From an uncultured Alphaproteobacteria bacterium (lineage in GTDB: Bacteria > Pseudomonadota > Alphaproteobacteria > Rs-D84), in NCBI GenBank assembly GCA_949156565.1, contig CASCZI010000004.1:65110-129109 (forward strand): 64,000 nucleotides of DNA. Reading direction: 5' to 3'. Position 1 is the first letter of the stretch. Each line of letters opens with the position of its first letter. A program made the translations under genes and the position numbers. Shown here in pieces: positions 11,212-35,022 of this stretch. The notes below the pieces were generated by a model. The model saw nothing but the letters and a program-made list of their open reading frames with translations, searched no databases and was not told the origin of the DNA.

Positions 11212-11857
11212 TGAAAATAATTGTCCCGATGGGAATGATGCCTGCGGGTGCATAAATCCCAAAAATGCGCCCGGGAACAAAAGCAAGAAGAGCATATATA
11301 GTCACAAATACTATATTAAAAATCGGGATAAAATAAAAGCGGCGTCTGCCGCATACGCGGCCCAGAATAAAGAAAAAGTGAGTGCACGTCATCATGAATA
11401 TGCCATCAAGAACAAGGAACGTCTTGGTGAATATCAACGATCTTATTATATTAAAAATAAGGATAAGATAAAAGCGGCGGCGGTGGCGGCATATGCGGGC
11501 AAGAACAAAGAAAAACATCTGGAGATGATGCGTAAGAACAGACAACGTTATGCCGAACAAAATGCACGTGCGCGTGAAATGTGTCCGGCGTTTATGTTCC
11601 TTTTGCAATTACGGATGACGGATATACGGCTTTATCAGACACGGTACAAGATTCATGACAACATTGTGAATCGGGCCATCAAAAAATGCGCGGCATTGCA
11701 ATCTGGCGACGCCAATTTATGTCCATTGGTTGCAGGCGACATGAAAAACGACCATGTACGTCAACAATGTGTCATACCGCACGTCTTTGAATTCACCCGG
11801 GCTGTTGACCGAATTACATACTTTGCCGGGAAATTAAAAAAATCCATTGCGAAATAA
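11201..11857 (+). CDS. Lys-rich hypothetical protein with internal tandem repeats
   Basis: The 22-aa repeats KNRDKIKAASAAYAAQNKEKV and KNKDKIKAAAVAAYAGKNKEK are present. Its start overlaps the end of the LysM gene. Confidence 0.45.
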   Translation: MTINENNCPDGNDACGCINPKNAPGNKSKKSIYSHKYYIKNRDKIKAASAAYAAQNKEKVSARHHEYAIKNKERLGEYQRSYYIKNKDKIKAAAVAAYAGKNKEKHLEMMRKNRQRYAEQNARAREMCPAFMFLLQLRMTDIRLYQTRYKIHDNIVNRAIKKCAALQSGDANLCPLVAGDMKNDHVRQQCVIPHVFEFTRAVDRITYFAGKLKKSIAK

Positions 11858-13147: not shown

Positions 13148-13363
13148 TTAAGATTTTTCGAAATGGGCCGCTTTTTCTTTACTGGCCAGGGCGAAATAAG
13201 ACAAAACTTTCCATGGAACGAATTTGGATGTATGGGGAACATGGCCGGCATTATGATATTTTAGTCGTTCTTTTAAATTTGATGTCATGCCTGTGTAATA
13301 CTGATCGGGATAAGATATACTCTGCAAAATATAGACATAATGCATATTTTTGCCATCCTGCAT
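13148..13363 (-). CDS. GIY-YIG nuclease-family small protein
   Basis: The motifs YVYILQS...YYTGMTSNLKERLKYHNAG...HTSKFVPWKV form a GIY-YIG core. It lies immediately 3' of tRNA-Gly on the same strand, and the longer 122-aa ORF in the track reads through the tRNA. Confidence 0.7.
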   Translation of the reverse strand: MQDGKNMHYVYILQSISYPDQYYTGMTSNLKERLKYHNAGHVPHTSKFVPWKVLSYFALASKEKAAHFEKS

Positions 13364-13436
13364 TTCATTCCGGCGGGCAGCCCGTTCGGCACGCTCATTC
13401 GGCTTGCCAGCCGGAGTTCGCTTGCGAACATAGGCT

Positions 13437-13509
13437 GGTGCGGGCGAAGGGAATCGAACCCTCGTCTTCAGCTTGGGAAGCTGACGTGCTACCATTATAC
13501 CACGCCCGC
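13437..13509 (-). tRNA. tRNA-Gly (anticodon CCC)
   Basis: The reverse complement folds as a cloverleaf with acceptor GCGGGCG/CGCCCGC, anticodon loop TTCCCAA, T-loop TTCGATT and an encoded CCA. Confidence 0.85.
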
Positions 13510-13640
13510 ATGTCAAACCAATGATGGGGTGATTCTATACCATGTCGACGCAAATGTCCAGTACAAAAATTTATCGTTGCAATTTCGTTTTTTCGGCTAT
13601 AAATTTATAAATGCTTTATGCAGACAGGAGAAAAATAAAA

Positions 13641-14956: not shown

Positions 14957-15181
14957 TTGAAGATGTTGATTTTAACCAATGTATTGCTATTTTCACCGGG
15001 TGCCGCGGTGAATTTTGTCTTGGTAATGGGAATTGTCGCCATGGCATTGGTTGGTATGGTGTGGGATGTCGGCGTTCGCTATGTTTTTGGGCTTGCGACG
15101 GTTTTCGTCTTGGTTCAGACAATTTTGGCGTGGCGGCTGATTGCAATGCGGCACGCCCAGCAAATCGACAAAATCATTTGA
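14957..15181 (+). CDS. small two-helix membrane protein (hypothetical)
   Basis: A 74-aa, strongly hydrophobic ORF. Coding status is uncertain. Confidence 0.3.
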   Translation: MKMLILTNVLLFSPGAAVNFVLVMGIVAMALVGMVWDVGVRYVFGLATVFVLVQTILAWRLIAMRHAQQIDKII

Positions 15182-15350
15182 CATTCGGTGAACTTTGGTT
15201 CATAATGGGCACGCAAATCCCAAAGATTGCCATTTAAATCATCCCAGTGTGCGGTATGCACATGGAACATCATCCGGCGAGTGTTCGCCCATGATGGCGG
15301 TTTTTATATTGGTTTCGGCGGGCCCGATTTAATTGTCAAAGGAGTATAAA

Positions 15351-15818
15351 ATGGCAACAGTTATTAGATTGGCGCGTTTTGGTGCGAAAAAGCGGCCGTA
15401 TTATCACATTGTTGTGACGGATTCACGTAACGCCCGTAATTCAGGGAATGTTTTGGAAACAGTCGGAAAATATGACCCGATGCAACCCAAAGACAGCGAC
15501 AAGCGCGTTGTTCTGAAAATTGACGAGGTTAAGGCATGGATGGCCAAGGGTGCCAAGCCGTCTGATCGCGTATATAAATTCTTGGCCAATGCCGGATTGG
15601 TTGAAAAAAAGCCGGTTCCAGTTCAGACCAAGAAACATCTGCAATCTGAAAAGACCCAGATGAAGATTAAGGACAAGGCAGATAAATTAGCCAAGGCCGC
15701 AGAAGAAAAAGCAGCCGCCGAAGCGGCCGCCAAAGAAGCCGAAGCCGCCGCGGCTGAAACACCGGCCGAAGAAGCCACCGCAGAAACACCTGTGGCGGAT
15801 GCCCCGGTTGCCGAATAA
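15351..15818 (+). CDS. rpsP: 30S ribosomal protein S16 with an Ala/Glu/Lys-rich C-terminal extension
   Basis: The N-terminus is MATVIRLARFGAKKRPYYHIVV. An SD (aaggag) lies 7 nt upstream. Confidence 0.9.
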   Translation: MATVIRLARFGAKKRPYYHIVVTDSRNARNSGNVLETVGKYDPMQPKDSDKRVVLKIDEVKAWMAKGAKPSDRVYKFLANAGLVEKKPVPVQTKKHLQSEKTQMKIKDKADKLAKAAEEKAAAEAAAKEAEAAAAETPAEEATAETPVADAPVAE

Positions 15819-15863
15819 GGGTTTGAAAACGCCCGGGGATATATACCGGGCGTTCAGATATCA

Positions 15864-16397: not shown

Positions 16398-16754
16398 ATG
16401 AAAAATGAAATAAGAAAAGATTTGACTTTAAAGTTCGGCAAAACGGATGTTTTCCATTCATTCCCCGTTGCATTTTATACAGCATATATTGCCGGCGTTT
16501 ATATCCCGTATAAAAAATGGGTTGGCGAAAAATGCAGTTGTGTTTTCGTATGCCCAAAATTTAAGACCTTTGCCATGGATAAGTGGGGCATACGGACTAT
16601 TCCGAGGGATGCCCAATGTCCCTATGTCGCGGGACCATGCAGTGGGGCGCATTGGTATGTGCGGGATATGGATAAATACGTCGATGGTGAAAAACTTCGC
16701 CGCCGGATTTCGCCAATCAGCTTGTATACCAGCAGCCATCAAAAATCGTATTAA
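16398..16754 (+). CDS. hypothetical Cys-containing protein inserted in the rpsP-rplS operon
   Basis: An SD (aaagg) lies 7 nt upstream. It is on the same strand as the operon and has no known motif. Confidence 0.45.
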   Translation: MKNEIRKDLTLKFGKTDVFHSFPVAFYTAYIAGVYIPYKKWVGEKCSCVFVCPKFKTFAMDKWGIRTIPRDAQCPYVAGPCSGAHWYVRDMDKYVDGEKLRRRISPISLYTSSHQKSY

Positions 16755-16786
16755 AGTCACCGTTTCGCGACAAGAAAGGCAATAAG

Positions 16787-17104
16787 ATGAAACAAAATTT
16801 GACTTATAACGATTTTACAATTGAACAAAAGGTTCCGTTAAAGTGTGCGTGTTCAAAGAGTATGCGTGATTTACACACGCCTTGTCCAATTGGGGGGATT
16901 TTTCGTGGCGAACCGTGTCGTATTATTCAAACCAGGATTGTTCATGCCAAACATGATATGGAACCGACGCAACAATCATTTTATATCACATTACCAGGCC
17001 CCAGAAAGTTAGATCATATTAATGTGGTCAATAAATATTTTGCAGATTTATCCCATGTGATACAGGCATGCCCATTTAATAAAATTGCCAATGTGCGATC
17101 ATAA
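16787..17104 (+). CDS. hypothetical small Cys-containing protein
   Basis: An SD (gaaagg) lies 7 nt upstream of the ATG. The product is 105 aa. Confidence 0.45.
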   Translation: MKQNLTYNDFTIEQKVPLKCACSKSMRDLHTPCPIGGIFRGEPCRIIQTRIVHAKHDMEPTQQSFYITLPGPRKLDHINVVNKYFADLSHVIQACPFNKIANVRS

Positions 17105-17190
17105 TGGTGTGTGATTAAAAAACTGTTTTGTATAGATCACAGATTTATGATATCATCGGACGGTCAAAATGTAAGAAAAAGGAAAATAAA

Positions 17191-17418
17191 ATGAAACAAA
17201 TTTATTTTTTGAATCATCATATTTGTCATGTGGAAAATTGCACAGAATCCTTGGCCAATTGTCCGGTTATTAAATATGCCTATGATAATGGGTATAATTA
17301 TCGCATTAATGGGGGTGCAATACAAATTGATCCCCAGCGTGCAAAAATCCCCGTGGTCGATTTTGTGCATTCTGTGATGGCGGCATGTCATGCATGTTCG
17401 AACGCCAGAAAACGATAA
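17191..17418 (+). CDS. hypothetical small Cys/His-rich protein
   Basis: An SD (aaaaagga) lies 7 nt upstream of the ATG. The 75-aa product contains CHVENC...CPV...CHAC. Confidence 0.45.
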   Translation: MKQIYFLNHHICHVENCTESLANCPVIKYAYDNGYNYRINGGAIQIDPQRAKIPVVDFVHSVMAACHACSNARKR

Positions 17419-17673
17419 AATATACAGAAAATGTAATTTATGGCCAACCGCAATATTATCATCAATTATACCATACCAAAAACATTTGTCTTGGCCGGCA
17501 AATCGGGTCATGTTGATGTGCCCCGGCCGCGGTGCCCCCATACCAATGGACGATGCGTTGGGACCAATTGGTGGGACCGTGATAAAGCAAAGGTAACATA
17601 CTAGCGTGGTATGCCGGTGACAATGCATCTGGTGCCATGGTTAATGAACGCCCATGATCAACGGTAAAAGAAA

Positions 17674-18372
17674 ATGCACTTTCATATACTGACCATTTTT
17701 CCAGAAATGTTTCCCGGCACCTTGGGTGGTGGGGTGGTTGGGCGCGCATTGGCCGCCGGGAAATGGTCGTATGACGTGACGAATATTCGTGACTTTGCCA
17801 TTAATCATTATGGCAGTGTTGATGACGAACAATTCGGCGGCGGGGTTGGTATGGTGATGCGTGCCGACGTTTTGGGGGCGGCACTGGATTCGATTAAAAA
17901 TCCGGGAAAAATTATCTATTTTTCGCCACGCGGCCCAACATTAAACCAACAAATGGTGCGGGGGTTTGCCGCCGCGACGGATGACGCGAATGGGGGGACG
18001 TACACCCTGCTCTGTGGTCGGTACGAAGGCATTGACCAACGCGTCATTGATGTGTATAATATTATGGAATTATCCATTGGGGACTATATCCTGTCGGGGG
18101 GCGAAATCGCCGCACAAGTTTTTATTGACAGTTGCGTTCGCGTGATGGATAATGTCCTGGGCGGTGGCAGTGATGCCACGGCCAATGAAAGTTTTGAAAT
18201 CGGGGGGTTGGAATGGCCGTTATATACCCGCCCGTCGGTATGGCGTGGACATAGTGTCCCAGAAGTCCTGCTGTCTGGTCACCACGGCAATATTGAACGG
18301 TGGCGGAAACAACAATCGGACGACATAACATTGGAACGGCGTCCGGACCTAATAAAGGAAAATAAAAAATGA
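17674..18372 (+). CDS. trmD: tRNA (guanine37-N1)-methyltransferase
   Basis: The N-terminus is [13 protein letters not shown] and a SPOUT/TrmD core is present. Its stop overlaps the rplS start. Confidence 0.9.
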
Positions 18373-18761
18373 ATGTTATTAAGAAAATCGAAGCAGCCCA
18401 AATCGAAAAATTAAAGGGCAACAAAAATATCCCAAATTTTAAGGCGGGGGATACATTAAAGGTCTATGTAAAGATCAAAGATGGTGACAAATTCCGTATT
18501 CAGATGTTCGAAGGTGTCGTGATCGGTCGTGATGGTGGCAACGGGAACAATGCATCCTTTACGGTGCGTCGTGAATCCTATGGTGTGGGTGTGGAACGTA
18601 AATTCCCGCTGTACAGCCCGGCGATTGAAAAAATAGAAAAGGTTCGTATCGGTCGTGTACGCCGTGCAAAACTGTTCTTCTTGCGTGGGTTGTCTGGGAA
18701 AAAGGCCCGTATCGTCGAAGATCTGGCCGCGACATCTGCCGAAAAGAATGCCGACAAATAA
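18369..18761 (+). CDS. rplS: 50S ribosomal protein L19
   Basis: The L19 sequence matches across the full length. Confidence 0.9.
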
Positions 18762-18765
18762 AAAT

Positions 18766-18792
18766 ACCGCCCATTCGGGCGGATTTTTTTTA
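18766..18792 (+). terminator. intrinsic terminator after rplS
   Basis: The hairpin ccgcccattcgggcgg with a T9 run, followed by acagtgttcagagttcagata. Confidence 0.75.
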
Positions 18793-27617: not shown

Positions 27618-30217
27618 GATTCAATCCTGATGTTTTCGGGGGTGCATATGGCACCCGGCATGGTGGATAATTTCTGCCACAGCATGGTGTGCCACGCCCA
27701 TTCAGATGCATTTTTAAATGGCGTAAAGCCATATATATATAAACGATCACGTGCCCGGGTCATGGCCACATACAACAAACGATAATATTCGGCAATTTTA
27801 TCTTGGGCCGCGGCGTCGGCGGCAATGGTGACGTGTTCGCTGTATGATTTTTGGGGGGACCATAACCATGCCGTTGTTTTGGACAATGGGTTCGAACCAT
27901 CATGGGGCAAATGAAAAATTTTCTCGGGTTTATCACGTGGGGTACGTACCGTATCGATCATAAAGACCACTGGTGCTTCTAACCCTTTGCTGCCATGGAC
28001 GGTAACAATGCGAACGCCATCGGACGCATCCATATCACGCTTTATTTCAGAACCACCGGTAATAAACCATTTTAAAAAGTGACGCAATGTGCCGGGCTGT
28101 GTACGTTCATAGGCCAAACAGATGGTCATAAATTCTTCCAATGGATCCACAATCTGTTCCCCCAATGCGGCAATCATTTTCGCACGACGGTTCGACGTGT
28201 TCAACACGTGGGCAAAGAATGTATATGGTCCCATTGTTTTTGCACATTCAATTATTTCATTCAAATCCGAAAAAATATCCGGATGCAATTGTTTCAATGC
28301 ATCAAAAGCAGAAATTTGTTGATCTTGTTTTAATTTACATAAATTAAAAATATCCTGTTCTGTCAATCGATAAAACGGACTTTTTAAAATACAACATAAA
28401 CGATAATCATCGGACGAATTCAATGTCACCCGGACCAAGTTCATCAGATCACGTATCGCCGGAAATTGGGGTAAAACGATACGGTCACTGCCGGCAACAT
28501 CAATATGGCGGGCCTTTAATGCACGAACCAATGGTCCGGCAAATGGGTTGCGTCGTTGAACTAAAACCATAATATCCGATGCGGAAAATTCCCCCGACAT
28601 AATCAGTGATTGGATGTGGTCTGCAATCAAAGAAATGTATTCTTCGCGCGTTACACCATTATCGGAACCGTTTGCGGTTAATGAATGCAATTCAACCACC
28701 CCAGAGGCATTTGTGCGAAAACATTTGTGTGGGTTATTCATAAAACCGGTCCGGCGTTGAATATCTGGATCGTCAAAAAAATAATCCACTGTATTTAAAA
28801 TTGGGGCCGTTGACCGAAAACTTTGGGCCAATGGAATTTCGCGGATTGTGCGTAAATTCTGTGAAATCTGGGTGGCGATTTCGTTGCGGCTTTGGGTAAA
28901 TGCATTGGGGTCGGCCCCTTGGAATCCATAAATAGATTGCTTTGTATCGCCAACAACGAACAAAGAACGTGGCCGTGATGCGGTATCCCCTTCGGCAAAA
29001 AAGTCCCCAGCCAGCAACCGTAAAATATCCCATTGTTGGGGGGCGGTATCTTGGGCTTCGTCCACCAAAATATGACTTAGCGATACGTCCAATTGTGACA
29101 ACACCCATCCCATGGTATCAGGTGCAGAAAACAAACGCCGTACATACAAAATCAGATCATCAAAATCCATCAAGTTTCGTTCATGTTTTATTTGACGATA
29201 TGTTTGTGAAAATGCCGCCGCCAAATCAAACAGCGCCACACTATCTTCGTATGCACACTGGTTTAATTTATATTGATTCAATGCATAAACGCGATTTAAT
29301 TCATCCCCCAGATATTCTTTTTTGGCAATGTGCGAAATGGGTGTGCCAGATGCCGTCAAATAGGCATATTTATATTCTTCAAAATCAATCGTTTTATCAA
29401 TGTATTGTTTCGTTAAATTAATTAACTTTATTAAATATGCTGCCGGCTTTTTTGTACTATTTACCTCTGCACTGGTCAAAGAGAGGATTTCTTGCAGATT
29501 TTTTGGATCATCCGCCACAAAAGCATTAGGGTCATAATTTAAAAATTTTCCAATTTTATCAATAAAGTGTTTGCGATAATTGGCAATATCGTTTATATCA
29601 AAAAACTGTTTATACTGGGTTGTTAAAATCGCCATTAATTCATCCAGGCTATGTTCCGATATACGCCCCACGATATGGGCAAATGCATCGCGCACATGGA
29701 CGTCCGACGTTCCTTTGACCAGCATTTGGAACGCATCCCGTAATAGGATACGTTGGGTTGATTCTGTAACCAATGCCCATGATGGAGAAATGCCAGCCTC
29801 TAATGGAAAACGACGCAAAATTTCTTCGCAGAAACCATGAATTGTTTTTATTTTTAACATATCAGGGTTATCAATATAGGCGAAAAAGATCTGGCGCGCA
29901 TGGGACAAATCATCGGCATTTGCCGGTTGATTGATGGCCACCGATTGTAACAAATCAACCAGTTCTGTATCCGATGCCATTGCCCATTGCCCCAGGGCCG
30001 TCAAAATACGGTTACGCATTTCCCCGGCCCCCGCATTGGTATAGGTCAGGCATAAAATACCCGATGGGTGCGTGGGATCGGTACGAAATAAAATCCGCAA
30101 CAGCCGTTGCACCAAAACACTGGTCTTGCCGGTTCCGGCATTGGCCTGGACCCATACGTTTTCCGCGGGATTGGCGGCCATGTCTTGGGACGGCGAAAGA
30201 TTGCGTTTTTGTGTCAT
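27614..30217 (-). CDS. addA: ATP-dependent helicase AddA (UvrD-like helicase portion, 867 aa)
   Basis: Has Walker A ANAGTGKTSVL, motif III VGDTKQSIYGFQGA and motif VI VTVHGSKGLEAPVV. No AddB gene is adjacent. Confidence 0.75.
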   Translation of the reverse strand: MTQKRNLSPSQDMAANPAENVWVQANAGTGKTSVLVQRLLRILFRTDPTHPSGILCLTYTNAGAGEMRNRILTALGQWAMASDTELVDLLQSVAINQPANADDLSHARQIFFAYIDNPDMLKIKTIHGFCEEILRRFPLEAGISPSWALVTESTQRILLRDAFQMLVKGTSDVHVRDAFAHIVGRISEHSLDELMAILTTQYKQFFDINDIANYRKHFIDKIGKFLNYDPNAFVADDPKNLQEILSLTSAEVNSTKKPAAYLIKLINLTKQYIDKTIDFEEYKYAYLTASGTPISHIAKKEYLGDELNRVYALNQYKLNQCAYEDSVALFDLAAAFSQTYRQIKHERNLMDFDDLILYVRRLFSAPDTMGWVLSQLDVSLSHILVDEAQDTAPQQWDILRLLAGDFFAEGDTASRPRSLFVVGDTKQSIYGFQGADPNAFTQSRNEIATQISQNLRTIREIPLAQSFRSTAPILNTVDYFFDDPDIQRRTGFMNNPHKCFRTNASGVVELHSLTANGSDNGVTREEYISLIADHIQSLIMSGEFSASDIMVLVQRRNPFAGPLVRALKARHIDVAGSDRIVLPQFPAIRDLMNLVRVTLNSSDDYRLCCILKSPFYRLTEQDIFNLCKLKQDQQISAFDALKQLHPDIFSDLNEIIECAKTMGPYTFFAHVLNTSNRRAKMIAALGEQIVDPLEEFMTICLAYERTQPGTLRHFLKWFITGGSEIKRDMDASDGVRIVTVHGSKGLEAPVVFMIDTVRTPRDKPEKIFHLPHDGSNPLSKTTAWLWSPQKSYSEHVTIAADAAAQDKIAEYYRLLYVAMTRARDRLYIYGFTPFKNASEWAWHTMLWQKLSTMPGAICTPENIRIES

Positions 30218-30300
30218 TTATGCCCTTGCTTTATGTTTGGAATTTTAGTATAAATTTTTATGGACTTCAAGGAAGATATAACCCAAGGGGGAAAGGCGCA

Positions 30301-32226
30301 ATGTTTGCAGATCAGACGCTGGTTATCATCATTGGTATTTTGGGATTTTTGTTGGTCATGATGTTGGGGGTGACCGGATGGATTGCGCGTCGATCATACC
30401 GGGCCATGGAATCGTTAATGACAATATTGACACGACCAGAACGCGCCCGTGCGGCCGATGCGGCCCGTGTTTTGAATACAATTATGGCCGACGAAATGGC
30501 CAAAATTCAATCGAACTTTTTGGAAATTTCTGCCGCGTTGGGGAATCAGATTTCCGCGGCTGAAAAAATGCAACAAGATATGGTTGATCAAAATGAAAAG
30601 TTGGCCGAAATTGCCGATGATGCCACCAAAAAGGTGGCCATGATGTCCCAGCGATTGGATAACACCGTCACGGGTTTAATGGGGGTTGTGGGATCTGCAT
30701 CATGGACAGACGTGGGAACGTGTTCTGAAAAATTCACATCTGATATCAATGAATTAATGTCGAAAATTGATACAACGTCACAAGAAATGGCGCAGCGTAT
30801 TGGCCATATCCAAGAATGCATGGGGGGGTGGGTATCATCATCCAAAGAATTATCATCAGAACTAACCCAGGCATTTGAAAAAAATGATACCCAGATGAAA
30901 TCTATGACATCGGAAAGCGATGCCATGCGTCAAAATTTAGACGCCTTGGCAAAATCAACTGCGGATGGTTTTGATCATGTACGCACGGCGGCGGCCGATT
31001 ATGCCGGCATTATGGACAAGAATGATAAATTGTTGACATCACAATTAACCAAAATGGATATGTTCAGCAAGCAATCGAAAAAACAATTAGCGACCCAGGT
31101 TAACACACTTAGCAGTACGGCAAACGTTATCGGTGCCCAGGTGATGTTGGCCGAAACATCGGTTGAAAAACAAATTCAAAAATTAACCGATGCGGTCGAA
31201 GCATTAATGACATCTGCCACCACGACCGAGGCATCTATTCGGGGTATTTCGGGTGAATTGGCGACATTGACCAACCGGTTTAATGGTGAAATTCGTGAAT
31301 TTGCCGGTGGGGTGGTTGGTGAATTAAAAACTGTATCGGGTGTGGCGAATACAACATTGGAAAACACCAAGACGGCGGCAACGGCATTTTCTGATTCTGT
31401 ACGTGCGATGGCATCGGGTGTACGCGAAACATTAATGGAAATGAACACGGCGCATTCCCAGTTGTCGGGCCAGTCAGAGGCATTAATTAAAATGTCGGTC
31501 GACACAACGGCCCGGCTGCAACCGTTGTCTGAACTGATTGAACGGTATTATGCGGCATTGCCGGAATTGGCCCAAGGGTCATCCGAGATGGGTGAAAATT
31601 TGGAAAAAATAGTTGCGGGATTAACCGATAAAATCGCCCAAATGCGCGAAATCGTGGCGGATTCCATGACCAATATGTCGGATTCATCCGCCAAGATCGA
31701 AGATCTGGCCGGTCAATCACGTCAACAAATGATTGATTTAATGTCGGATTATTCCAAGGCGGTTGACACCATGCAAACATTGAACAAGCAAATGATGGTG
31801 GCACGGGCCACCGCCCCGATGGATGCCATTGGAACCGCCCCGGTTTCATTTGCCCCCGTCAGCAGTACGGATTTCATGACCCAGGCCGAAAAAATGATCC
31901 AGAAACTGCATGAACAATCTGTTGATTTAACACGGGCGACGGGCGCGGAAATCCCAGATATTGTTTTGAAAAAATATCATGCCGGTGACACAGAAATCTT
32001 TTCAAAGTGGTTGGCAAAAATGCTGGCGGCGGCCAATAAAAAACAGATACGTGATTTGTTGAAAAATGATAGTGTTTTTCGTTCCCAGGCAGCTCAGTTT
32101 ACCCGGGCCTTTGCCAAGATATTAAGTGCCGCAACCCAGACGGATGCACCGGATGCCACACGGGCGACATTATTAAAGACTGACCTGGGCCAGATATATA
32201 CAGCCCTGCGCGGGATTAATGTTTAG
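30301..32226 (+). CDS. large membrane-anchored coiled-coil protein (hypothetical, 641 aa)
   Basis: A single N-terminal TM helix is followed by a long Ser/Thr/Ala/Met/Gln-rich predicted coiled coil. The start is divergent from addA and the ATG follows gggggaaagg. Confidence 0.55.
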   Translation: MFADQTLVIIIGILGFLLVMMLGVTGWIARRSYRAMESLMTILTRPERARAADAARVLNTIMADEMAKIQSNFLEISAALGNQISAAEKMQQDMVDQNEKLAEIADDATKKVAMMSQRLDNTVTGLMGVVGSASWTDVGTCSEKFTSDINELMSKIDTTSQEMAQRIGHIQECMGGWVSSSKELSSELTQAFEKNDTQMKSMTSESDAMRQNLDALAKSTADGFDHVRTAAADYAGIMDKNDKLLTSQLTKMDMFSKQSKKQLATQVNTLSSTANVIGAQVMLAETSVEKQIQKLTDAVEALMTSATTTEASIRGISGELATLTNRFNGEIREFAGGVVGELKTVSGVANTTLENTKTAATAFSDSVRAMASGVRETLMEMNTAHSQLSGQSEALIKMSVDTTARLQPLSELIERYYAALPELAQGSSEMGENLEKIVAGLTDKIAQMREIVADSMTNMSDSSAKIEDLAGQSRQQMIDLMSDYSKAVDTMQTLNKQMMVARATAPMDAIGTAPVSFAPVSSTDFMTQAEKMIQKLHEQSVDLTRATGAEIPDIVLKKYHAGDTEIFSKWLAKMLAAANKKQIRDLLKNDSVFRSQAAQFTRAFAKILSAATQTDAPDATRATLLKTDLGQIYTALRGINV

Positions 32227-32290: not shown

Positions 32291-32575
32291 ATGGTTGATT
32301 CAGAAAAATTATATACGTCAAAAACCCTTCTTTCAGGCTTTACCTGTCGTGTGACCGGGCGTGAATGTACAGCGATACCGGAATATCTGGCCCGTTATAA
32401 CGCGGCGGTTGAATACAACACCCAAAGAAAAAACAATTTTTTGTTTTTTACGAGGGATGATGCTGATTTGTGCAAAGATGCGGAATGCCCCATATATTGG
32501 GAATATCGGACGAACAGGAATTTATTAAAGCTTCTGTCGGCAAGTGCAAGGGACCATAAACAACATGGACAATAA
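32291..32575 (+). CDS. hypothetical small protein
   Basis: A 94-aa ORF with four Cys. Confidence 0.3.
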   Translation: MVDSEKLYTSKTLLSGFTCRVTGRECTAIPEYLARYNAAVEYNTQRKNNFLFFTRDDADLCKDAECPIYWEYRTNRNLLKLLSASARDHKQHGQ

Positions 32576-32858
32576 AGATATTGAATTTTGCAAGTGTGAT
32601 AATGATTTCAACTGTCATTATACATGTACTTTGACCGGGAAGTATTGCGAAAAAGTATCCCAGCATATGCAGGAATGGACAGATTCAATCGCATACATTG
32701 CCGATAATAAAATCAATAGCGTTATATGTACTGCGTCCAGTAATTTGTGCGCGGATGTCAAATGCGATTTATATAAACGCGTACGGGATTTGCACCGCCA
32801 GAATGTGAAATACTTAACCGATGGGGCGTTGGATTGGTGTCCCGTTTTTTATTATTAA
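32565..32858 (+). CDS. hypothetical small Cys-rich protein
   Basis: About 97 aa with more than 10 Cys. Confidence 0.35.
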   Translation: MDNKDIEFCKCDNDFNCHYTCTLTGKYCEKVSQHMQEWTDSIAYIADNKINSVICTASSNLCADVKCDLYKRVRDLHRQNVKYLTDGALDWCPVFYY

Positions 32859-32914: not shown

Positions 32915-32936
32915 AATCCCCCGACGGGGGATTTTT
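32915..32936. terminator. bidirectional terminator (rpoD 3' end)
   Basis: The sequence aaaaaaatcccccgacgggggattttt. Confidence 0.7.
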
Positions 32937-35022
32937 AATCTTCCAAGAAACTGCGTAATTTTCGCGCACGCGTGGGATGCTTTAACTTATTCAATGCCTT
33001 TTGTTCAATCTGGCGAATACGTTCGCGCGTCACACCAATGTATTCCCCAACTTCTTCAAGGGTGCTTGTTTTATTGGTCGACATCCCAAAACGTTGGCGC
33101 AGGACGGTTTCTTCTTTGGCGTCCAATTCCGACAGAATTTGCGTTACAATCTTACGCAGATTCTTTTGCGCGGCCGATGTAAATGGATTTTTTGCGGTTT
33201 CATCGGCGATGATTTCAATGCGACTGCTTTCTTCGTCGGTTCCGACGGGCGCTTCGAGTGAAATAGGCTTCATATTGACCTTCATCGCCTTGTGAATTTT
33301 ATCCACCGGCAGATAGATAATCTTGGACAATTCTTCGGCGGTCGGTTGTCGGCCGTATTTATGCATGAATTGCCGGGATGCCCGTTGAATCTTATGAATA
33401 TTATCAATCATATGAACCGGGATACGGATGGTTCGGGCCTGGTCCGCGATGCTACGGGAAATACCCTGTTGAATCCAATTCGTGGCATAGGTCGAAAATT
33501 TATTCCCCAGACGATAGTCAAATTTATCAACCGCCTTCATCAGACCGATGTTGCCATCCTGGACCAGATCAGAAAAATCCAGCCCCAGGCCACGATTGCT
33601 GTGCTTTTTGGCAAACTTGATCACCAGACGCAGGTTGGCTTCGATCATTTCACGTTTGGCGCGGGCGGATTCGGTTTGGCCGCGTCGTACCAATTCGACA
33701 ACTTTTTTATATTCACCAGTTGGCTGGCCTGTTTCAGTGGCAATCGCCGTTATTTCTTCTTGTATTTTTTGAATGTCTTTTTCATGCTTTTTGGCAAAAT
33801 TCACCAAGGCGGTGTTTTTGCTACGCATTAATTTCTTGACCCAGTTCCGGTTTAATTCATTCCCGGTATATTCGGCCAGAAAATCTTCGCGTTTTACCTT
33901 GGCCCCCAATGCCAGGCGCAGCAATTTTCCCTCTAGCCCCATTAACAATTGATCGCGTTTGGTCAATTGTTCCAAAATTTCGGCATTTCTATCGTCATTA
34001 AGGCGGATCTTGCTAACATGTTCAAACAATTCCAGACGTAATTTGGCGTACTTTTTTTCAAGCGCTTCGTCCGGCGTCGATGATGTTAACAATTTTTCCA
34101 GACGTTGGGCCTGTAACTTTTGCATGTTATTAAAGATACGTTTGATCTTATTAAACAGATCCATCACCATGGGCATCAAGGCTTCTTCCATCACCGGAAT
34201 CGGAACACCCGACGTGCCACGTGGGGTATCTTCTTTTTTAATACCATCTTCGTCTTCGGCGTCTTCGTCATCATCTTCGTCGCCGGGTTGCGCGGTCGAT
34301 TCTTCTAAATCGTCCAATTCATCGTCATCCAATTCGTCAACATGTTCAACGCCCTTGGATTTCATGGCATCGGTTAATGCCGCCAAAGATTTTTGTTCGG
34401 CCTCGGATGAATACATGACTTCGAGATTAACGATATAACGCAAACGAATATCTTCGTTTAACAATTGTTGATACCAATCAAGCATGGCCTGGATCGTCAT
34501 GGGACTTTCGCATAAACCATACACCATCAGACGGGATGCCGCCTCGATCCGTTGGGCAATGGCCACTTCGCCAGCGGCGGTCAATAATTGAACCGTACCA
34601 ATTTGTTTTAAATACGACTGAACAGAATCTTGGACCCCCAGAACCAGGTTGCCGGTCTGACTGCGTTCTAATTGTTTGGCATAATGATCATAATCATCGT
34701 CGTTGACATCAACCTGTTCGGCATCGGCATTTAATAAATTACGTGTTTTATCACGCGGTTCATCCCCATCGTCGTCATAATAACGGCCCATATCACGCGC
34801 AAAACTGTCTGATTCAAGAATTTCCAGGGCCAAATCCTGTTGGAAAAAGTCCAGGACTTCGGCCTTTTCATCATCAGGCACTTCGTCGGCATCGGTGGCG
34901 GCATCAAAATCCATCTGCGAGAGATACCCCACCTCTATCGACGAAGTGGCCAATTTTTGTAAATTTTCCGGTAATGAATCAATCAGCATCCGGGTTGCGT
35001 CATCCAGTTTCTTGGGCATCAA
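32935..35022 (-). CDS. rpoD: RNA polymerase sigma-70 factor RpoD
   Basis: Regions 1.2 to 4.2 are present, with an acidic insertion (EDDDEDAEDEDG). The C-terminal 4.2 HTH is TLEEVGEYIGVTRERIRQIEQKAL. Confidence 0.92.
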   Translation of the reverse strand: MMPKKLDDATRMLIDSLPENLQKLATSSIEVGYLSQMDFDAATDADEVPDDEKAEVLDFFQQDLALEILESDSFARDMGRYYDDDGDEPRDKTRNLLNADAEQVDVNDDDYDHYAKQLERSQTGNLVLGVQDSVQSYLKQIGTVQLLTAAGEVAIAQRIEAASRLMVYGLCESPMTIQAMLDWYQQLLNEDIRLRYIVNLEVMYSSEAEQKSLAALTDAMKSKGVEHVDELDDDELDDLEESTAQPGDEDDDEDAEDEDGIKKEDTPRGTSGVPIPVMEEALMPMVMDLFNKIKRIFNNMQKLQAQRLEKLLTSSTPDEALEKKYAKLRLELFEHVSKIRLNDDRNAEILEQLTKRDQLLMGLEGKLLRLALGAKVKREDFLAEYTGNELNRNWVKKLMRSKNTALVNFAKKHEKDIQKIQEEITAIATETGQPTGEYKKVVELVRRGQTESARAKREMIEANLRLVIKFAKKHSNRGLGLDFSDLVQDGNIGLMKAVDKFDYRLGNKFSTYATNWIQQGISRSIADQARTIRIPVHMIDNIHKIQRASRQFMHKYGRQPTAEELSKIIYLPVDKIHKAMKVNMKPISLEAPVGTDEESSRIEIIADETAKNPFTSAAQKNLRKIVTQILSELDAKEETVLRQRFGMSTNKTSTLEEVGEYIGVTRERIRQIEQKALNKLKHPTRARKLRSFLED

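Follow-up and report, generated by a model that had tools for sequence, protein, structure and literature searches.

Few gene adjacencies in bacteria are as stable as that of rimM and trmD, and the two genes are normally translationally coupled. In the stretch of DNA analysed here (64,000 nucleotides of contig CASCZI010000004.1, hereafter the window), the two genes stand 1,330 bp apart, and the gap contains three small open reading frames (ORF1, ORF2 and ORF3) that run in the direction of the operon. What are these genes, and how did they come to lie there? A sequence-only reading of the window had correctly described 1.3 kb with three co-directional small ORFs between rimM and trmD, and took them for accessory genes inserted into the operon. 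The comparison with relatives gives a different picture. The junction is occupied in 63 of 75 related Enterousia-like species and empty in the other 12, and ORF1 and ORF3 are of types that prove to be resident families. Taken as a whole, the locus is best explained, and in our judgement probably so, as one instance of a genus-wide, fast-turnover array of small accessory genes that Enterousia-like bacteria carry within their trmD operon.

The rimM–trmD junction in related species

A search with TrmD yielded 80 loci with 80–92% identity from uncultured gut Alphaproteobacteria, many of them named Candidatus Enterousia, and the host of the window is a Candidatus Enterousia-like alphaproteobacterium of the order Rs-D84. 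Genomes of Candidatus Enterousia are 0.75–1.0 Mb in size and lack the tricarboxylic acid (TCA) cycle and respiratory chains (PMC12306168). The comparison covered the 75 loci in which both rimM and trmD are present, with about 12 kb of DNA per locus. Occupied gaps measure 141–1,789 bp and are tiled by one to six co-directional ORFs of about 50–140 amino acids (aa); ORFs of the minus strand do not tile them. The stop codon of the last ORF lies at a median distance of 2 nt from the ATG of trmD (at most 10 nt in 57 of 64 sites), and the final codons of this ORF, typically K-Q/T-R/K, form a purine-rich stretch directly 5′ of trmD. The 12 empty sites are canonical: in each, the rimM stop codon overlaps or abuts the ATG of trmD, and all are exact junctions. 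The trmD gene is essential in bacteria. In E. coli, it is coupled to rimM in translation, and both genes are expressed at a far lower level than S16 and L19. The junction must preserve trmD translation whatever lodges there, and the conserved stop-to-ATG geometry fits this demand. The G+C content of the gap is below that of rimM and trmD in all 64 occupied sites (0.379 vs. 0.452), which makes low G+C a feature of the genes themselves and not a sign of recent import.

Sites without an array, and arrays of differing composition, occur here and there across the clustering of species. L001, the nearest relative of the window, has an empty site, while an ortholog of ORF1 is present in L002 and L003, which come next. 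An alignment in which the empty site of L001 would retain the tail of a deleted array was unconvincing, and this claim was dropped. The synteny check in relatives, which the sequence-only reading had suggested, shows small genes at the same junction in most species, and the searches turned up no homolog of known function.

Protein families were defined by clustering and profile searches over 103 selected gap ORFs. The largest, FAM0, comprises 68 of them, 67–138 aa long with the exception of one of 166 aa. In an alignment of 55 FAM0 sequences, the mean column identity is 15%, C17, C24 and C66 are invariant and C69 is conserved in at least 90%. The resulting pattern is C-x6-12-C[P]...C-x2-C followed by a basic tail, and beyond the start Met there is no other near-invariant column. 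ORF3 belongs to this family and keeps C17, C24[P], C66 and C69. The second family, FAM1, has 19 members of about 96–144 aa with four invariant Cys (C48, C52, C74 and C81) and the core CxCVxxCxQF..YPVD.WGRRIIP..A.CP...C.G; ORF1 has all four Cys. Minor groups include a Cys-free family of 47–49 aa, several more ORFs with a four-Cys pattern and a few singletons. No relationship between FAM0 and FAM1 was detectable with hhalign. The Cys pairs quoted in the sequence-only reading were found in the three products of the window (KCSCVFVCP, KCACSKS and CHVENC...CP...CHAC). The three genes do not form a single family: ORF1 and ORF3 come from two four-Cys families that are unrelated to each other, and ORF2 is an orphan.

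Both families share general properties. The median isoelectric point is 8.9 for FAM0 and 9.3 for FAM1, and a scan for hydrophobic or membrane-like segments in their members found none. Four ligand-type Cys conserved against a variable background, the sequence mark of a zinc mini-protein, are present in both. Because these four Cys are the only deeply conserved residues, each family probably folds round one metal ion, which would be held by the four Cys and is probably zinc. In the DNA searched, which comprised the 64-kb window and about 12 kb of each related locus, profile matches are almost confined to the rimM–trmD gap. Used as database queries, the alignments retrieved 17 relatives of FAM0 and 27 of FAM1, all unnamed and without Pfam domains. 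A search of 1.84 billion representative proteins with the FAM0 hidden Markov model (HMM) gave 20 matches, all 75–106 aa long, with ORF3 itself at E 1.6e-12, and the context of two of the database FAM0 proteins was again rimM–[small genes]–trmD. The exact proteins of ORF1, ORF2 and ORF3 occur in a large protein collection only as clusters of 2–4 unnamed members.

Two relatives show less usual arrangements. In L002, the closest occupied relative (L002:5247–5999, plus strand), the ORF1 ortholog is followed by one ORF of about 218–250 aa consisting of two tandem Cys modules. Its module 1 matches FAM0 with E 2.7e-5 and ends in CPFN like ORF2 of the window, and the gene may be a fusion of two cassettes, as the genes of the array are called below. 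In L034, a block of about 4.5 kb is inserted between rplS and the DUF2155 gene (L034:8285–11726, minus strand). It consists of a FAM0 gene (11466–11726), the sole copy of FAM0 outside the rimM–trmD gap in the DNA searched, and then ORFs of 305, 140, 255, 325 and 89 aa. The ORFs of the block had no match in Pfam and weak matches only in PHROGs (best E 0.004), and these gave no functional clue.

Selection was estimated as the ratio of nonsynonymous to synonymous substitution rates (dN/dS) in 16 orthologous cassette pairs from different species, in 15 of which dS was not saturated. The ratio is 0.08–0.24 in 15 of the 16 pairs, compared with 0.03–0.12 for trmD and 0.06–0.20 for rimM in the same genome pairs. 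In dN, the cassettes exceed TrmD several-fold and are close to RimM or somewhat higher. Purifying selection thus acts on the cassettes at the protein level, which marks them as real proteins. The FAM1 protein distances correlate with those of concatenated RimM, TrmD and L19 (Mantel r 0.73, a value reached in 0 of 2000 permutations), and FAM1 diverges approximately 3–4 times faster than these three. This tracking of species divergence points to old, vertically inherited residents that were repeatedly lost. The simplest history would comprise an old resident array, vertical descent, fast divergence, duplication, decay and repeated clean deletion.

Neither the descent of FAM1 nor the search for mobile elements agrees with an insertion into this operon, as the sequence-only reading had it. 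Neither phage genomes, searched by tblastn with ORF1–3, nor plasmids, searched with ORF1 and ORF3, gave a match, and FAM1 had no confirmed match among the IMG/VR viral contigs. The window and the three longest arrays were free of attC-like or other boundary inverted repeats, and the only repeats in them are common ribosome-binding-site/start motifs and CxxC-tail coding motifs. No integrase or transposase was found among the called neighbours within ±4 kb, which are GDH, GIY-YIG, DUF2155, AmiA-like and TsaD genes. One metagenome match from JGI (L087) was rejected as a false positive, being a YPVDRWGRR string in an unrelated 265-aa ORF of a high-G+C organism.

Searches against known protein families were similarly negative. 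ORF1–3 and a minus-strand ORF of 154 aa gave nothing usable in Pfam, PHROGs, PADLOC and NCBIfam, and the matches of ORF3 to DUF7930 (E 0.12) and phrog_15328 (E 0.047) were taken as chance. None of the zinc-finger/zinc-ribbon, WhiB, Gin, DksA/TraR and ribosomal-protein families of Pfam and NCBIfam reached its curated threshold. The 55 members of FAM0 and 23 of FAM1 compared with Pfam gave nothing better than E 0.007, each match being confined to one member, and profile searches of the PDB sequences returned chance antibody matches only. As to anti-phage defence and toxin–antitoxin components, PADLOC was empty for ORF1–3 and PHROGs offered only the ORF3 match at E 0.047. Precursors of ribosomally synthesized and post-translationally modified peptides (RiPPs) were not recognized either, there being no leader/core pattern (conservation lies in four Cys across the whole protein) and no maturation enzymes at the locus. 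A literature search gave no earlier description of a variable array of several genes at the rimM–trmD junction.

Layout of the locus in the window

The genes rpsP, rimM, trmD and rplS follow each other in this order on the plus strand of the window, and each was identified by its domain, which assigns the locus to the trmD operon. The features are as follows.

15178–15206, plus strand: sigma-70-like promoter candidate 5′ of rpsP, TTGACA-17-CATAAT, 11 of 12 consensus positions (assigned by consensus match alone)
15351–15818, plus strand: rpsP (ribosomal protein S16), first gene of the operon; PF00886 Ribosomal_S16 on the identical gene of strain contig L081
15864–16343, plus strand: rimM (16S rRNA processing protein); PF01782 RimM, E 2.9e-15
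16398–16754, plus strand: ORF1, 118 aa, member of FAM1; FAM1 HMM, E 5.8e-26; Shine-Dalgarno sequence AAAGG
16787–17104, plus strand: ORF2, 105 aa, five Cys, orphan; recognized by length, Shine-Dalgarno sequence and identity across strain contigs
17191–17418, plus strand: ORF3, 75 aa, member of FAM0; FAM0 HMM, E 2.2e-7
17440–17668, plus strand: decayed FAM1 copy; two collinear FAM1 HMM matches and hhalign
17674–18372, plus strand: trmD (tRNA m1G37 methyltransferase); PF01746 tRNA_m1G_MT, E 1.2e-37; residue 1 aligns with relatives
18369–18761, plus strand: rplS (ribosomal protein L19), overlapping the trmD stop codon; PF01245 Ribosomal_L19 on strain contig L081
18767–18790, plus strand: intrinsic terminator ending the operon, six G-C pairs and then a T-run (strong site 18767–18782)

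The array in the window thus has the order FAM1 – orphan – FAM0 – decayed FAM1. The Shine-Dalgarno sequences of ORF1–3 are AAAGG, GAAAGG or AAGGA and each ends exactly 7 nt 5′ of the ATG, in agreement with the sequence-only reading, which had, however, given ORF1 a length of 119 aa by counting the stop codon. Its statement that no terminator separates the ORFs from the operon agrees with the consensus scan, which shows no convincing one. On the plus strand between rpsP and rplS, the lone terminator-like site is a weak 5-bp stem within ORF2, and the number of such sites is no higher than in shuffled sequence. Rfam, tRNA and repeat scans of the region detected no RNA gene and no repeats flanking the insert. 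The G+C content of the insert is 0.31–0.45 (0.41 overall), compared with approximately 0.50 in the flanks. Eleven contigs of the same species carry ORF1–3 with identical gene order, the strain contigs being 99.4–100% identical. With this layout, the small ORFs would be co-expressed with the operon.

ORF2 is unchanged in all strain contigs, and a database search returned only ORF2 itself. The FAM0 HMM matches it only weakly (E 0.008, in a test of three sequences). Comparison of ORF2 with the FAM0 profile by hhalign and with ORF3 shows no relationship, and no other family matches it. With the syntenic 250-aa ORF of L002, it has only the C-terminal CPFN in common (E 0.056). ORF2 is possibly a very diverged FAM0-like gene but was not assigned to any family.

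The spacer between ORF3 and trmD (17419–17673, 255 bp) contains a fourth, decayed gene that the sequence-only reading had overlooked. The frame from 17419 reads M(17440)ANRNIIINYTIPKTFVLAGKSGHVDVPRP-RCPHTNGRCVGTNWWDRDKAKVTY-stop-RGMPVTMHLVPWLMNAHDQR-stop. The premature stop is a TAG at 17602–17604, and the original tail ...DQR-TAA ends 5 nt before the ATG of trmD. The FAM1 profile matches the spacer in two collinear pieces (positions 7–26 and 64–91) with 11.8 bits, while 0 of 500 shuffled sequences exceeded 6.1, and hhalign supports the match with E 5.9e-5. Only the two ends match; the Cys core was lost in frame, and two of the four Cys are absent. As judged from these matches, the spacer is a dead FAM1 copy in which the terminal codons and the spacing to trmD are kept. 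Among strains, 6 of its 255 bp are substituted (2.35%), five of them inside 17440–17668, vs. 0.44% in the flanks.

Several further observations were made on the operon and elsewhere in the window. Public gene calls for the species begin trmD 33 nt downstream (221 aa), leaving out 17674–17706. The 232-aa start is likely because the first 11 codons align from residue 1 with every relative. The rpsP–rimM junction of the window (15819–15863) is empty. In relatives L001–L091, this junction is also variable, with a gap of −6 to 838 bp (median 285), and can hold 1–3 small ORFs of further families (e.g., L025:4404–5260, L058:4471–5220 and L089:1545–2306). One type, of about 62–72 aa, has the pattern CP-x6-8-C...(D/E)EFYRQM...CP-x5-7-C; another, of about 105–115 aa, reads CPYDGTYCRQK...AVEYAA...CP...C; a third is Cys-free and about 80–91 aa long. 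No relationship of these families to FAM0 or FAM1 was detected with hhalign, and a match between two of them (G2-A and G2-B) was rejected as an artefact of fused ORFs in the alignment. Two overlapping or adjacent Cys-containing ORFs of the window, at 32291–32575 and 32544–32858 (plus strand; 94 and 104 aa), match the CPYDG...AVEYAA profile with E 3.9e-4 and 4e-8, respectively. They lie 3′ of a 750-aa coiled-coil-like ORF (29974–32226) and face rpoD (32935–35022, minus strand). These mini-protein families can therefore also occur away from the trmD operon. A stand-alone small GIY-YIG gene (13148–13516, minus strand) adjoins the gene for tRNA-Gly(CCC) (13436–13509, minus strand) and, as called, overlaps it. 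At the start of the window, there are two Cys-rich ORFs on the plus strand, at 63–869 (268 aa, 14 Cys) and 885–2192 (435 aa, 22 Cys), the latter with a hydrophobic N-terminus.

Proposed mechanism and rival explanations

In the explanation that we prefer, the cassettes encode soluble, basic proteins of 70–130 aa, each of which would fold round one metal ion, probably zinc. Having neither a promoter nor a terminator of their own, the cassettes would depend on read-through from the rpsP promoter for transcription and on their own Shine-Dalgarno sequences for translation. The final cassette codons would occupy the position of the trmD ribosome-binding site, so that trmD translation would be coupled to the last cassette, and deletion of the whole array would restore the canonical rimM/trmD overlap. 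Basic charge and operon context weakly suggest that the proteins might bind RNA, the ribosome or ribosome-maturation factors in a lineage-specific manner, as accessory and not essential components. In a bolder version, at least four unrelated four-Cys mini-protein families, overlooked so far and maintained throughout the genus, would be translationally coupled into both internal junctions of the trmD operon. Their products would associate with the ribosome or with tRNA as exchangeable factors specific to a lineage, or would protect the translation apparatus. We regard this version as unlikely.

A number of observations weigh against the preferred explanation. Within the species, ORF1 has 12 substitutions in 357 bp (8 nonsynonymous and 4 synonymous), ORF2 has 0 in 318 bp, ORF3 has 1 in 228 bp and the flanking genes have 9 in 2,040 bp (0.44%). 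ORF1 therefore has about 8 times the substitution density of the flanks, synonymous sites included (Fisher p 8e-6, on small numbers), and its ratio of nonsynonymous to synonymous polymorphism (pN/pS) is 0.51 vs. 0.08. The changes (16453–16733, in strain contigs L083, L084 and L086) leave the invariant positions untouched, and most are on a haplotype common to L083 and L084. This variation suggests relaxed constraint or the exchange of a divergent allele (a short recombination tract), and some copies at this locus may be on their way to being lost or may undergo exchange. ORF2 stands without relatives. The usual tight coupling to trmD is lost in the window itself because the 255-bp decayed copy intervenes. 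The AlphaFold2 models have a low predicted local distance difference test score (pLDDT 47 for ORF1 and 60 for ORF3), and Foldseek comparison of these low-confidence models with the PDB gave nothing below E 0.38; fold searches are uninformative because the structure predictions are poor. Any ribosome-related role must be dispensable, because 12 species do without the array, and an argument from the neighbouring rimM and trmD carries little weight as to function.

Some of the same data might be read in terms of genetic conflict, with anti-phage, anti-toxin, immunity or decoy genes parked in a constitutive essential operon and their variability reflecting an arms race. A copy number of 0–6, the patchy presence across the tree and the conservation of the Cys scaffold alone would be expected from such genes, the within-species excess of ORF1 on one haplotype is compatible with allele exchange, and a FAM0 gene heads the inserted block of unknown genes in L034. 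What makes this reading quite unlikely is the empty result with PADLOC and PHROGs, the absence of a partner toxin or enzyme gene at the locus, the between-species dN/dS, which at 0.08–0.24 is not above 1, and the vertical inheritance of FAM1. Selfish hitchhiking is another reading of the geometry, since a cassette whose 3′ end supplies the ribosome-binding site of trmD could be removed only by precise deletion, whatever little it gave the cell. The close placement of the last stop codon, the purine-rich terminal codons, the exactness of all empty junctions and the retention of last codons and trmD spacing in the decayed copy all agree with it. Yet purifying selection extends along the whole proteins and over all four Cys, beyond the 3′ ends, and internal genes of multi-gene arrays are also maintained, which leaves hitchhiking improbable.

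Two further readings are hardly tenable. A recent foreign insertion peculiar to this genome, such as mobile gene cassettes, could explain the lower G+C of the insert and the empty site of the closest relative, L001, but it is largely refuted by the presence of the same families at the same site throughout the genus, by the low G+C of every occupied site, by the ORF1 ortholog in L002 and L003 and by the lack of attC-like or terminal repeats, of an integrase and of phage, plasmid or viral relatives. That the ORFs are not genes at all, being chance frames in an expanded AT-rich spacer or precursors of RiPPs or bacteriocins, is about equally hard to maintain. The missing database names and Pfam domains, the poor structure predictions and the orphan status of ORF2 would suit it, whereas the dN/dS values and the integrity of the ORFs in more than 60 species contradict chance, and four Cys spread over the whole protein, without a leader/core division or maturation enzymes nearby, do not fit a RiPP. 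A resident array with fast turnover remains the explanation that we consider probable.

Significance and relation to known systems

A genus of gut symbionts with reduced genomes houses, in its rimM–trmD and rpsP–rimM junctions, fast-evolving small families that are absent from Pfam, NCBIfam and PDB. At least two of them are new protein families that a clear signature sets apart, and annotators can assign what were "hypothetical proteins" to definable families by diagnostic motifs. Should the proteins be expressed and bind metal, they would add new families to the poorly charted small proteins of bacteria, and the arrays would offer a natural system for studying how new genes lodge in essential operons with the coupling unbroken. 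The question would then also arise why an organism without a TCA cycle and respiration retains up to six such genes. If the wider reading with a coupled repertoire in both junctions were true, one of the most conserved bacterial operons would contain a variable module in a genome of less than 1 Mb.

The proteins most resemble other stand-alone four-Cys mini-proteins. Among these are the zinc-finger small proteins of haloarchaea (e.g., Brz, CPxCG-type; PMC2253796), which are also tiny and soluble, have two Cys pairs and many lineage-specific paralogs and are in some cases basic and regulatory. The Cys spacing is different here (C-x6-12-C[P]...C-x2-C or C-x3-C...CP-x6-16-C, without CPxCG knuckles), Pfam reveals no relationship in sequence, the hosts belong to another domain of life and the genes are arrayed inside one essential operon. 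The WhiB-like (Wbl) proteins and the sigma-factor binders Gin/CsfB resemble the array products in size (50–120 aa), four Cys, an often basic C-terminal tail and fast-evolving paralogs. Only one of 55 FAM0 members touches each of these Pfam models, at E 0.007–0.1 and thus far below the threshold, and Cys spacing and taxon differ. The Cys-containing zinc ribosomal proteins (the "C+" forms of bL31, bL33, bL36, uS14 and bS18) are likewise small, basic, four-Cys proteins encoded in ribosomal operons, where they are expressed together with ribosome components, as the array products would be. They show no homology to the array products and are single-copy and universal, whereas the array genes number 0–6 per species and 12 of 75 species lack them.

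In gene organization, the arrays recall those of integron cassettes, which also consist of promoter-less co-directional small ORFs of variable number and content behind one upstream promoter. They differ in having no attC and no nearby integrase, in being vertically inherited and in lying between two essential, translationally coupled genes. The trmD operon of Firmicutes provides a precedent for small passengers, with YlqC (a KH-domain protein) and YlqD between rpsP and rimM. Those passengers are single, conserved and not Cys-rich; the genes described here match neither KH nor any other Pfam domain and occupy two junctions of the operon, both of which vary from species to species.

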